A stretch of 64,000 nt of DNA, taken from Myxococcota bacterium. Lineage in GTDB: Bacteria > Myxococcota_A > UBA9160 > UBA4427. Below are positions 3,692 through 7,914 of this stretch, piece after piece. Numbering within the stretch: position 1 is the first letter of the stretch; every line of letters starts with the position of its first letter. The stretch covers positions 32,001 through 96,000 of the forward strand of contig OZ252299.1 in assembly GCA_965250285.1 (NCBI GenBank), given 5' to 3'. The position numbers and the translations under genes are program-made. The notes under the pieces were generated by a model. It saw only the letters and a list, made by a program, of their open reading frames with translations. It ran no database searches and was not told the origin of the DNA.

Positions 3692-4270
3692 ATGTCTCGC
3701 AGCCCTGCCGCACGGGCCAGCGCCGCCCGTGACAATCTCGAGTTCGCCGACGTCTACCGCCCGGGCGCCGTCGATCGCATCCGCGCGCTGATCCCCGCCG
3801 ACGTGCTCGACGTGATCGACACCCGCGCGGGCTCGTCGTGGCTCGAGTTCGAGTACGACCACTATCTGATGGACGGGGCGGTCGAGGTGCTCGGGGTCGA
3901 CGACGCGGTGCGCTGCTGGCACCAGTCGATCGGGTTCCTGATCGACAAGCCCCTGCTCCGCAGCTTCGTGCACGGGGCGCTGCGCATGTACGGCGCGCGG
4001 CCGGGCAAGATCCTGAAGCTCGTGCCCAAGGGCTGGACGCTCGCCTACCGCGACTTCTGCGCGCCGGTCTACACGCTCTTCGAAGAGGGCCACGCCGAGA
4101 TCCGCTTCACCGACGTGGCACCCGAGGCCTTCGAGAGCCCGGGCTACCTGCACTGCTGGCACGGCATCTGCCTCGGCGTCTTCGACCTAGAGAAGCCGTC
4201 GAATGGCCGCGTCGAGTTCGAGTTCGACGCAGCGAAGCTCGAGGCCTGCGCGACGTTCCGTTGGGGCTAA
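3692..4270 (+). CDS. Hypothetical protein, possibly DUF2378/V4R-like ligand-binding fold
   Basis: Coding-like codon usage; W-L-E-F-E...W..G and C-terminal C.TFRW pattern resembles myxobacterial DUF2378/V4R-like proteins (by eye). Confidence 0.55.
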   Translation: MSRSPAARASAARDNLEFADVYRPGAVDRIRALIPADVLDVIDTRAGSSWLEFEYDHYLMDGAVEVLGVDDAVRCWHQSIGFLIDKPLLRSFVHGALRMYGARPGKILKLVPKGWTLAYRDFCAPVYTLFEEGHAEIRFTDVAPEAFESPGYLHCWHGICLGVFDLEKPSNGRVEFEFDAAKLEACATFRWG

Positions 4271-4277
4271 GCCGAGG

Positions 4278-5888
4278 CTACTGCTCGACGCAGTAGAACC
4301 GGCGCTCGAAGTTGCAGGCGATGCCGCTGCTCGTGTCGGTCCAGTCCGATGTGAGGGTGCCCGAAAGACCCTGTCGACCGGAGACGCCCGACGAACTCGA
4401 CGTCCAGCCCTGGCAATGACTCGGAGTGCCCGTGCCTCCGCCGCCCACCGCAGCGACACCGGACCACACCGGGACGGGGGTCGAGACCGTCGACGAAGCG
4501 GCTGTGACGCTGATGCCAAAATCGAGCGTGCCGTCGGTGAGATCGGCCCAGTCGTCGGCGATGACCGTTCCCAATGGGTCGATATAGGGCGCACCCGACC
4601 GGCTCTCGCGCGTGGCGGGACTGGCGACCCCGTCTGCCAGCCAGGCCTGATACGTGCCTGTGAGGCCCGCCGCATCGGCTTCGCTCTGGCAGGTCGCATC
4701 GGCTCCGCTGAGTCCCCCCAGATCGCCCATCGATGCGGCAGCCGAGAGGAAGATGGTGCGTGGACTGCCCGTGTTGATCAAGACGCCCGTCCCTGACCAC
4801 GACTTGCCGTTGGGCAGCGTGACCGTGATCAGCGGGAACCCGGGCGGCTCGGTGCCTGCGACGGCGATGTCGAGGCTCGTGGGGGTCACGTTGGTCGGCG
4901 TCGGCGACTGCGTGCCGAACTGAGCGGTCATGCCGGGCTCGAAGTTCGTGCCCGTCAGGGTGATCGTCGCGGCCTGACCTTCGTCGAGGACGTCGGGGGC
5001 GAAGCCGGTCACCGTGGGCTTGATCAGGAAGAACGGGAACGAGCCCGAGGTCGACTCGGCGTTCGGGAGCGTGACCGTCACGCTGGCGTCGCCTTCGGGC
5101 TGTGAGCCGACGGTGACGTCGAAGCTCGTCGGCGTGATGTTCGACGGCGTCGGGTTCTGGCTGCCGAAGGCGACGGTCATGCCCGCGACGAAGCTGGTGC
5201 CCGAGACCGTGACGACCGTGCTCTCGAAGCCGTCTGCCGACGCGGGCGAGAAGCCCGAGATCGTGGGCGTGACGACGTTGATGTTCGAACCCTGTGCCAG
5301 CTCGTCTCCGTCGAGGATGCCATCGCCGTCGTTGTCGGCATCGACGAAGTTCGCGCGACCGTCGCCGTCGGTATCGCCGAGACCTTCATCGGGGTGGAGA
5401 TTTTCGGGGCTCTGCCCGTCGAACTGAAAGTACTCGAGCATCTGCGTGATGTACCCCGACTCGATGCCGCCGACGTTCTCGGCGACCTCGGCACGCAGGG
5501 CGTAGGGGACCATGAGGAGCTGGGTTCGCGGGGTGAGGGTTTCGCCCTCGACGGTGACCTCGAGGTGGATCGCGCCGCCTTCGACGACGGCTTGATCGAT
5601 GGGCGTGATGGCCCCGAGCACGACGTCGTAGACGCCGTCGACGACCTGGACGGCCGGGTGGCTCTCGTACCAGAGGGCGGCGCCGCCGGCGGGAGCGTCG
5701 AAGAGCTCGAACTCCATGGCGACGGTCGCGGTGACCGGATCGCCCTGGTCGTCGAGCAGCAGACCCTGGTAGCTGGTTTCGCCGGGGACGGCGGCGAACG
5801 CGCTGGAGGCGATCCAAGCCGAGGCGACGACTCGGACGAGGAGGGATGAGAAGAGTGAAGCCCGGGATCGGAGCGGGCGAGAAGTCAT
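4278..5888 (-). CDS. Exported surface protein: signal peptide, conserved YQG..D..G.P N-terminal domain, Ca-binding DxDGDG repeats, two IPT/TIG domains, C-terminal DUF1554 (endostatin/C-type-lectin-like) domain
   Basis: AFA signal cleavage; SYQGLLLDDQGDP...VPYALRA; DTDGDGRANFVDADNDGDG; two PT(I/V)(S/T)GF.P...GT(S/N)F..GMT..FG repeats; GDLGGLSGADATCQ..A...YQAWL...W...C.GWTS...C...FYCVEQ. Confidence 0.85.
   Translation of the reverse strand: MTSRPLRSRASLFSSLLVRVVASAWIASSAFAAVPGETSYQGLLLDDQGDPVTATVAMEFELFDAPAGGAALWYESHPAVQVVDGVYDVVLGAITPIDQAVVEGGAIHLEVTVEGETLTPRTQLLMVPYALRAEVAENVGGIESGYITQMLEYFQFDGQSPENLHPDEGLGDTDGDGRANFVDADNDGDGILDGDELAQGSNINVVTPTISGFSPASADGFESTVVTVSGTSFVAGMTVAFGSQNPTPSNITPTSFDVTVGSQPEGDASVTVTLPNAESTSGSFPFFLIKPTVTGFAPDVLDEGQAATITLTGTNFEPGMTAQFGTQSPTPTNVTPTSLDIAVAGTEPPGFPLITVTLPNGKSWSGTGVLINTGSPRTIFLSAAASMGDLGGLSGADATCQSEADAAGLTGTYQAWLADGVASPATRESRSGAPYIDPLGTVIADDWADLTDGTLDFGISVTAASSTVSTPVPVWSGVAAVGGGGTGTPSHCQGWTSSSSGVSGRQGLSGTLTSDWTDTSSGIACNFERRFYCVEQ
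5476..5831. repeat. Direct repeat copy 1 (N-terminal domain of surface-protein paralogs)
   Basis: Aligns without gaps to 6918-7273 at offset 1442; 5509-5641 is identical to 6951-7083. Confidence 0.95.
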
Positions 5889-5977
5889 GCAGGGCCTCGG
5901 TCTGGGGGATTCGGACGGATCGTTTTCGACTCGGCGCTCGCGTGGGTCTCCGCCGTCGCCCGAGCGTCTCGCGCTGA

Positions 5978-7333
5978 CTATTGCTCGATGCAGTAGAGGC
6001 GTGTCGTGCTCGTGCCGCAGGTGAGACCGGACGCGCGGTTGCTCCAGTCGGAGTCGATCTCGCCGATCTCGCCGACGCGTCCCGCGACCCCACTCGAGCC
6101 CGAGGTCCAGCCCGCGCAGTGCAGCGCGCCCGCGCTGGTCGCGCCGCTGGCCGTGACGTTCGACCAGACGAGCCCCGATGCGGCCTGGCCCGATGCCGTC
6201 TTGTCGATGCCTGCATCGAGGGTGCCGTCGGTGAGGTCGGCCCAGTCGTTGGCAATGACCGTTCCGGTCGGGTCGACGAAGACGCTGCCGAGCTGGGAGG
6301 CGCGCGTCGCCGGGCTATCGACGCCATCCGAGAGCCAGGCCTGGAACGTGCCCACGAGGCCCGCGTTGTCGGCGTTGGCTTGGCACGTGGCGTCGGCGCC
6401 GGCGAGGCCGCCGAGGTTGCCGCCGCTGCTCGATCCGGTGACGAAGATGATGCGCTCGGTGCGAAAGTAGTACGACGACGCCGTCGTCTCTCCGTTCACT
6501 CGCGTGACCGTGACCGGCACGGTCGACTCGGTGACCGGGCCCACGGTCACCTCAAACGAGGTCGGAGTGACGTTCGTCGGCGTCGGTGTCTCGGCACCCA
6601 CCGTGACCGTCATGCCGGCCTCGAAGTTGGTGCCCTGGATCTCGATGACCGTGGCCGCTTCTCCGTACGAAAACGGAGGATCGAAGCCGGAGATCGTCGG
6701 CGTGACCATGTTGATGTCGGAGCCCTGATCGACCTCGTCGCCATCGAGCAGGCCGTCATTGTCGTTGTCGGAATCGACGAAGTTCGGGCGGCCGTCGCCA
6801 TCGGTGTCGACCGTGCCCTCGTCGGGGTGGGTGTTCCCGGGCTGCTGGTTGTCGAGATTCACGTACTCGATGATCGCGTCGAAGTAGGCCGCATCGAACG
6901 ATCCCAACGAGCCAGCATTCTCGGCGACCTCGGCTCGCAGCGCGTACGGAACCATGAGGAGCTGGGTTCGCGGGGTGAGGGTTTCGCCCTCGACGGTGAC
7001 CTCGAGGTGGATCGCGCCGCCTTCGACGACGGCTTGATCGATGGGCGTGATGGCCCCGAGCACGACGTCGTAGACGCCGTCGATGACCTGAACCGCGGGG
7101 TGGCTCTCGAACCAGAGCGCCGAACCGCCAGCCGGGGCGTCGAAGAGTTCGAACTCCATGGCGACGGTCGCGGTGACTGGATCGCCCTGGTCGTCGAGCA
7201 GCAGACCCTGGTAGCTGGTTTCGCCGGGTACGGCGGCGAACGCGCTGGCAGCGATCCAAGCCGAAGCGACGACGGAGAAGCTAAAGAGCGAAGACAAGAA
7301 TCGATGCGGGCGAGTCATCATGCAGATCCTCAA
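5978..7333 (-). CDS. Paralogous exported surface protein with one IPT/TIG domain and C-terminal DUF1554-like domain
   Basis: Same architecture as 4278-5888; near-identical first ~120 aa; ends LYCIEQ. Confidence 0.85.
   Translation of the reverse strand: MRICMMTRPHRFLSSLFSFSVVASAWIAASAFAAVPGETSYQGLLLDDQGDPVTATVAMEFELFDAPAGGSALWFESHPAVQVIDGVYDVVLGAITPIDQAVVEGGAIHLEVTVEGETLTPRTQLLMVPYALRAEVAENAGSLGSFDAAYFDAIIEYVNLDNQQPGNTHPDEGTVDTDGDGRPNFVDSDNDNDGLLDGDEVDQGSDINMVTPTISGFDPPFSYGEAATVIEIQGTNFEAGMTVTVGAETPTPTNVTPTSFEVTVGPVTESTVPVTVTRVNGETTASSYYFRTERIIFVTGSSSGGNLGGLAGADATCQANADNAGLVGTFQAWLSDGVDSPATRASQLGSVFVDPTGTVIANDWADLTDGTLDAGIDKTASGQAASGLVWSNVTASGATSAGALHCAGWTSGSSGVAGRVGEIGEIDSDWSNRASGLTCGTSTTRLYCIEQ
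6918..7273. repeat. Direct repeat copy 2 (N-terminal domain of surface-protein paralogs)
   Basis: Aligns to 5476-5831. Confidence 0.95.
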
Positions 7334-7914
7334 CGGCGCACGAGGCGTCGGGTGCGCAGCACGCGCACGGTGGTGAAGCCGACCAGGAGCGCGAGGGCGA
7401 GCTGGCCGATGGCTCCGAGCAGCGGGACGAGCTCGGGCAGCGAGAACGGATCGTTCGGGTCGGTGTTGGCCGTCACCTCGACGCCGTCACCGATGCCGTC
7501 GCCATCGGAGTCGACGATCAACGAGTCGGTGCCCGTATCGGAGGGCGAGGCGAAGACGGCCGTGTTGGTCTCGACGACGTCGTCGAGGCCGTCGCCATCA
7601 TCGTCGCTGTCGAGGAAGTACGCCTCGCCGTCGCCGTCGAGGTCGAGGCTCGGCAGGGCGCCGGCGAGCAGCGGGGGAAAGCCGGGCACGATCGAGGCGA
7701 GATCGACCTCGCTGCCCGACGGGCCCACGGGTTCTGACTGGCCGAGCGCGGCGGTGTTCGAGAATGAAGCGCTCGCCGAGCTCGTGCCGCCGGCCGAGAC
7801 GTGGCCCCCGCGCACCGTGTAGCTGGCGCTCGAGAGATCGCCGAACGCGGGAGGCGCGATCCACAAGACGCCCGCAGCGAGGGTCAGGCCGAGTGCGATG
7901 GATGTGTGCGTCAT
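7330..7914 (-). CDS. Small exported protein with TSP3-like Ca-binding repeats and IPTL-CTERM-like C-terminal anchor
   Basis: Signal peptide; Gly/Ser-rich YTVRGGHVSAGG..S..F..LGQ...G...PGF segment; DLDGDG/DDDGDG/DSDGDG repeats; tail VPLLGAIGQLALALLVGFTTVRVLRTRR; 4-bp overlap with next gene. Confidence 0.85.
   Translation of the reverse strand: MTHTSIALGLTLAAGVLWIAPPAFGDLSSASYTVRGGHVSAGGTSSASASFSNTAALGQSEPVGPSGSEVDLASIVPGFPPLLAGALPSLDLDGDGEAYFLDSDDDGDGLDDVVETNTAVFASPSDTGTDSLIVDSDGDGIGDGVEVTANTDPNDPFSLPELVPLLGAIGQLALALLVGFTTVRVLRTRRLVRR

Follow-up and report, generated by a model that had tools for sequence, protein, structure and literature searches.

A putative plug-and-socket display of MAT-like adhesins at a Myxococcota locus, and a segment family that accompanies the MAT-type N-domain in five phyla

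In cohesin-dockerin pairs, in the pairing of type B C-terminal domains (CTDs) of type IX secretion systems (T9SS) with PorP-like proteins, and in the docking peptides of phage receptor-binding proteins (RBPs), exchangeable surface proteins attach to an anchored partner via a conserved docking module. The prey-grabbing MAT (mosaic adhesive trimer) fibres of Bdellovibrio are trimers, and the accessible part of PMC10769870 states that their N-terminal domain (N-domain) has no PDB homologue and presumably binds a surface element, the identification of which is left to later study. The accessible part of a 2026 review (PMC13689555) names no MAT anchor. In the pili of the candidate phyla radiation (CPR), PamT is modelled at the pilus tip as a single truncated Ig domain; the same preprint (PMC13278184), in its accessible part, reports that a tail-fibre-like protein is consistently encoded next to the pam operon and offers no explanation for this. 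Here we analyze a stretch of 64,000 nucleotides from a Myxococcota bacterium (contig OZ252299.1, positions 32,001 to 96,000; the window), in which three neighbouring genes resemble both of these systems in part. We suggest that gene 1 probably encodes a surface-sorted receptor, a segment of which plugs into the N-domains of the gene 2 and gene 3 products and thereby holds these predicted adhesins on the cell. Such an anchor-plus-docking-module display would work like cohesin-dockerin or type B CTD-PorP. The likeness to these systems and to the phage RBP peptides is one of working principle only and family membership is not claimed: no sequence or fold match to cohesin-dockerin or other docking modules was found, a negative that is itself weak evidence.

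The N-domains of gene 2 (6923-7234) and gene 3 (5481-5792), both on the minus strand and marked by a YQG...PYA pattern, are, judged by profile comparison, full-length homologues of the MAT fibre N-domain. A profile of window-type N-domains aligns with one of true MAT N-domains over 107 columns, i.e., the full length (hhalign probability 98.6, E 6e-16). A link to Bdellovibrio fibres, which the sequence-only reading of this DNA had named, is thereby borne out. The NCBIfam family Bdello_MAT_N (NF053851) is matched by 80 of 86 N-domain relatives, and all seven true MAT loci tested from a metagenome scan exceed its cut-off, with 94-232 bits. The window N-domains score 37.0 and 37.3 bits, below the cut-off of 60, and are without an additional Cys-bearing insertion found in the MAT N-domain. 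On these scores, the two adhesins are distant MAT relatives that fall outside the NCBIfam family. With MAT fibres they share a beta-rich N-domain that immediately follows the signal peptide, swappable stalks and tips, and the lack of an anchor of their own. They differ in that the stalk is TIG and the tip DUF1554, neither of them phage-like.

The N-domain is modelled by AlphaFold2 as a six-stranded beta sandwich, with a mean predicted local distance difference test score (pLDDT) of 86 and a core near 97, at an alignment depth of 86. A PDB sequence search revealed no close solved relative (best E 0.41), and Foldseek returned generic sandwiches only, none at E ≤ 1e-3. The best VIA fold match has Z 7.4 (root-mean-square deviation 2.7, 82 residues aligned), and the weak fold neighbours, at E about 0.1, include strand-complemented sandwiches of the CnaB/SpyCatcher type. 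From a viral fold library came a single weak match, an uncharacterized phage protein (E 7e-4, TM 0.41), the ESM Atlas gave 0.92-0.94 to unnamed clusters, and two N-domains searched against plasmids found no match. The domain is widespread: within the phylum of the window, 127 of 201 genomes carry it, some in at least 24 copies, and about 2600 sequence stretches in GTDB fit one narrow N-domain pattern. Loci are also found in Bacteroidota, Chloroflexota, Verrucomicrobiota, Zixibacteria, Omnitrophota, WOR-3, Elusimicrobia, and CPR.

Gene 2 (5978-7321, minus strand; 447 aa) and gene 3 (4278-5888, minus strand; 536 aa) encode proteins with the same order of parts: a signal peptide, the N-domain, a TSP3-like motif, an IPT/TIG stalk, and a DUF1554, or endostatin-like, tip. 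The stalk is a single TIG domain in gene 2 (6473-6700; PF01833, E 2e-8) and a pair in gene 3 (4803-5267; profile matches), and the tips, at 6068-6424 and 4362-4733, narrowly pass the PF07588 gathering score of 27.5 bits, with 28.2 and 28.5 bits, respectively. Stalk number and tip type had been predicted correctly. A near-identical N-domain of about 110 aa had also been predicted; the two are indeed 97% identical across 104 aa, but the likeness runs on beyond that domain, with 71% identity when the first 289 aa are compared and 51% across the 251 aa of the last TIG and tip. At the DNA level, identity is 87-99% in the N-domain and falls to about 50-75% in the tip. By eye, neither protein has a C-terminal membrane segment or a lipobox, in agreement with the claim that they carry no membrane anchor. 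The likeness to the endostatin-like LenA-F proteins of Leptospira is limited to the DUF1554 domain, narrowly over cut-off in the window tips; whole-protein Len models score the window adhesins at 16-27 bits vs cut-offs of 300-400, and Len proteins are lipoproteins, unlike the anchorless window adhesins.

Gene 1 (7330-7914, minus strand; 194 aa) had been described as a small exported protein with a Gly/Ser-rich segment, calcium-binding repeats, and a C-terminal sorting tail, and this anatomy holds. The N-terminus resembles a signal peptide (by eye). The segment follows at residues 26-85 (7660-7839), and then a spacer of DxDGDG, or bacterial TSP3, repeats (7447-7647; PF18884 at residues 135-156, E 2e-7, the others by eye). 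The DxDGDG motif is present in gene 1 as stated, but it is also found in genes 2 and 3, where it is TSP3-like and below cut-off. The tail (7348-7428) has the motif, the hydrophobic helix, and the basic Arg cluster of an IPTL-CTERM signal, and it scores 14.4 and 18.2 bits on TIGR04174, below the cut-off of 20.5. The genome has one match to an XrtH-like exosortase (80.3 bits vs a cut-off of 86, E 6e-22), and a pattern search finds nine tails like that of gene 1.

The Gly/Ser segment is, by its alignment, a member of an unnamed family of about 55 residues with a 19-residue internal repeat. Self-similarity is maximal at lag 19 (z 11 vs shuffles), and an aromatic-x-Leu-x-x-Gly unit recurs in the column counts, three times in all. 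The gene 1 segment is read as three pseudo-repeats about 19 residues apart. In the relatives, the segment is a Gly/Ser stretch of 50-60 residues in genes that adjoin N-domain genes. The window copy has no match in Pfam or NCBIfam; relatives' segments match the N-terminus of PamT. Word-index searches with the segment gave two matches and then five, four of which are T9SS-CTD proteins, and the best ESM Atlas score, 0.78, is at most a lead.

What carries the segment changes from lineage to lineage. We collected 115 carriers, 77 of which were scanned for anchor families; over cut-off are the T9SS type A CTD (18), PamT (3), and IPTL-CTERM (1). By eye, further carriers are lipoproteins that have a long acidic linker and bear the segment at the extreme C-terminus, and two (L011 and L017) are PEP-CTERM-like. 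Likewise by eye, the Chloroflexota carriers of about 100 aa consist of a signal peptide, the segment, and a short conserved tail. Movement of the segment between unrelated anchors fits the behaviour of a docking module.

The evidence that the segment and the N-domain belong together is genomic linkage. In the reverse test, genomes were searched by segment profile, and an N-domain gene was sought within about 6-9 kb, with the training loci removed. Among loci outside profile building, 80 of 99 have an N-domain gene nearby: 12 of 17 in the window's phylum, 27 of 30 in Bacteroidota (covering 30 of 32 places), 22 of 26 in Chloroflexota (covering 26 of 43 places), 6 of 6 in Verrucomicrobiota, and 13 of 20 in Patescibacteria (CPR), where the loci were picked by the PamT model. 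The phylum names are those of the seed loci. Several of the misses lie at contig ends, and two apparent false segment matches (L216 and L221) were counted as misses. Copy numbers put chance linkage at about 1-4%, and at about 12% in G238, which has 32 N-domain copies. In the held-out forward test, a profile from own-phylum seeds finds a segment at ≥14 bits at 5 of 74 cross-phylum N-domain loci (0.33 Mb), against a background of one match in a 6.25-Mb genome. Thus, conserved linkage between the two families, the absence of which had been named beforehand as grounds for giving up the proposal, was found, and is strong, in five phyla. At five loci (L003, L007, L008, L301, and L362), the two genes lie on opposite strands, so linkage does not need a single transcript. 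In the 6.25-Mb genome of the window itself, the sole segment copy adjoins the sole two close N-domain genes, which argues that the pairing at this locus is not chance. Since the segment keeps its N-domain neighbour while the anchor is swapped, it is most simply taken as a receptor for that neighbour.

A working model can be put together as follows. The three gene products would be exported via their signal peptides, and the gene 1 tail would likely be processed by the exosortase, tethering the protein to the envelope; the tail and the exosortase both score just below their family cut-offs. That the segment binds the adhesin N-domain is, we think, quite probable. Poorly folded by itself, the segment would likely lend each N-domain of a trimer a single beta-strand, one from every repeat, i.e., one plug for three chains; this stoichiometry is suggested by the 19-residue repeat together with the trimeric state of MAT fibres. 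Because the N-domains are 97% identical, either adhesin, though unlike in stalk length and tip, could fill the same plug. That the segment is a lasting anchor, with one plug per trimer, seems somewhat better than an even bet, and the 1:3 stoichiometry is less sure at the window locus than for the family. To our knowledge, a one-chain pseudo-trimeric plug has no counterpart among the cohesin-dockerin, type B CTD, and phage RBP systems.

A number of observations weigh against this model. The window's own segment has diverged in repeats 2 and 3, and a Pfam scan of genes 2 and 3 found no collagen, S74, phage-fibre, or other trimer marker. That the segment modelled alone reaches only pLDDT 47 at an alignment depth of 86, a depth at which the N-domain reaches 86, speaks for the model, but this low score could stem from a weak alignment instead of disorder. 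In the forward direction, linkage is incomplete. A trained segment profile detects a segment at 21 of the 74 cross-phylum N-domain loci, i.e., most are without a detectable one; 2 of 19 held-out loci of multi-copy genomes pass a lipoprotein-type profile, with some eight more candidates by eye; and of five genomes with at least 24 N-domains, two have no segment match, one has a clear match, and two are marginal. The genome of the window itself has a third, diverged N-domain gene with no segment nearby. N-domain loci without a segment may reflect low sensitivity, one plug common to many adhesins, or other receptors; segment genes number 1 against 7 N-domain matches in G040, 1 against 5 in G159, and 2 against 32 in G238. 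In addition, related genomes are not independent, which inflates both the counts and the z-scores, and no p-value is given. Finally, covariation between the segment and the N-domain over 86 paired rows has a top-5 mean z of 4.89, vs 4.51 ± 0.27 and a maximum of 5.09 in 25 within-lineage shuffles.

These points bear on three other explanations. The segment and the N-domain may bind one-to-one, e.g., through an added strand or hairpin that completes the six-stranded sandwich, the window adhesins then being monomeric. The modelled strand number, the strand-complemented fold neighbours, and the lack of trimer markers in genes 2 and 3 speak for such an arrangement; the threefold internal repeat suits a trimer better, MATs are trimeric (PMC10769870, accessible part), and relatives of the adhesins bear collagen or S74 domains. 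We consider one-to-one binding unlikely. Rather improbable, too, is a role for the segment as a transient aid that nucleates trimer folding or ferries the adhesin during export, e.g., on a T9SS CTD. The carriers do have their lineage's own export or sorting signal, and one plug gene can go with many unlinked adhesins, but several of the carriers are of a permanently anchoring type (lipoproteins, sorting tails, PamT), and S74-type MATs own a trimer chaperone, yet one of the loci (L417) keeps its upstream lipoprotein. Lastly, surface-protein genes cluster generally, and with the incomplete forward linkage and a covariation signal not above shuffles, the proteins might simply be co-regulated, with no physical interaction, the segment being an adhesive or self-polymerizing strand of its own; this is very improbable, as in five phyla the linkage stays with the 55-residue segment whichever of its unrelated carriers bears it, and the Chloroflexota carriers of about 100 aa contain little else than signal peptide, segment, and tail.

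The proposal of a plug that docks MAT-like fibres extends to the CPR pili. Weak matches to the NCBIfam PamT model (NF058579) are seen for nine of the 38 segments of relatives. PamT is over cut-off in 5 of 201 genomes, and four of these five proteins score 17-26 bits on the segment profile, in the stretch after the signal peptide and before the pilin domain; the fifth has a partial repeat (by eye). On these matches, what follows the signal peptide in the N-terminal part of PamT is the same segment. Gene 1 shares with PamT the segment family, and pam operons adjoin N-domain fibre genes; gene 1 differs in having no pilin domain, and a profile scan found no match in it to PamT (NF058579) or the Pam pilin domain. 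An N-domain fibre gene closes the pam operon in G603 and G639, and in G582 such a gene lies 7.7 kb from the operon, with the ATP synthase genes in between. This is the sole N-domain copy in G603 and likewise in G582; in G561, the copy sits on a different contig, and G622 yielded none. We infer that PamT docks the neighbouring fibre at the pilus tip. The display system had been called neither a pilus nor an autotransporter, which stands for the window locus but is too narrow for a family whose segment begins a tip pilin. Two further loci are recorded here: in one (L286, G249:C5), a pam-like operon is directly followed by a gene for a 443-aa N-domain protein, and the genome G666 (L330) has 13 Pam pilin domain matches, mostly in frames of 860-1080 aa, an expanded pilin family.

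For the MAT fibres themselves, a lipoprotein of about 100 aa is a candidate anchor. It lies directly upstream of 9 of 49 MAT-type N-domains, in a few related lineages, and a tenth lies 3.5 kb off. The other 39 have no such lipoprotein in the DNA examined around them, a further point against the model. The lipoprotein has 41 homologues, some of them from Bdellovibrionaceae and, with this query, none from B. bacteriovorus; a search of viral contigs gave no match. The C-terminal half has a repeat of period 22, vs 19 in the segment. Aligned with the segment, it yields hhalign probabilities of 1-9% (E 0.004-0.045), a score that none of 100 column shuffles reaches with any of three templates. The best match of its profile outside its own loci is a Chloroflexota segment, with 10.2 bits vs a background of 9.2. 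The Bdellovibrionaceae lipoprotein is, thus far, similar to the segment family only weakly.

The most general form of the proposal is tentative, and we put it at somewhat less than an even chance: a single plug-and-socket module, present in at least five phyla, in which a one-chain pseudo-trimeric plug of 55 residues, mounted on the lineage's own anchor (T9SS CTD, exosortase tail, lipoprotein, or pilus tip), captures the base of a trimeric fibre. The module would be the missing MAT anchor and, via PamT, would arm CPR Pam pili with a host-binding tip fibre. Literature searches, with thin coverage of subscription papers, found no described partner for the MAT-type N-domain, and the plug family and its linkage to the N-domain appear undescribed in the literature searched. 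With a candidate partner now named where none had been described, the proposal offers testable answers to what holds MAT fibres on Bdellovibrio, a gap stated in the accessible part of PMC10769870, and to why a tail-fibre-like gene goes with CPR pam operons (PMC13278184, accessible part). It would also account for a very common unannotated domain and would provide surface display with a connector that is small and of natural origin.

Some smaller points concern the layout of the locus and its relatives. The three genes are co-oriented on the minus strand, as had been noted, but the reported 4-bp overlap of genes 1 and 2 holds only if gene 2 begins at TTG 7333 (451 aa). The ATG at 7321 is preceded by a GAGG element spaced as at the gene 3 start, and it leaves an 8-nt gap. 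The ATG is the likelier start, and the overlap is probably an artefact of choosing the longest open frame. A 192-aa gene on the plus strand (3692-4270), without a match in Pfam or NCBIfam, converges with gene 3, the stops being 7 bases apart.

Among the carriers, about 20 of the 26 from Chloroflexota (L493-L518) end in an aromatic-Leu-Pro-Leu...Arg tail, likely a lineage-specific sorting signal. G684 has 21 segment matches in total, two of them within one 1668-aa frame (G684:C568:4439-4768). No natural complete fusion of N-domain and segment was found; a chimera at L115:268-996, which joins a truncated N-domain to two segment repeats (a partial segment) and a dockerin-like end, may be a deletion product. 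The third N-domain gene of the window's genome, outside the window at 780293-781348 in G000:C1:776602-788610, is flanked by open frames of 1297 and 2414 aa that resemble, by eye, Tc-toxin-type components, and thus shows the domain in a second setting. Similar neighbours are found at L122-L125 and L099.

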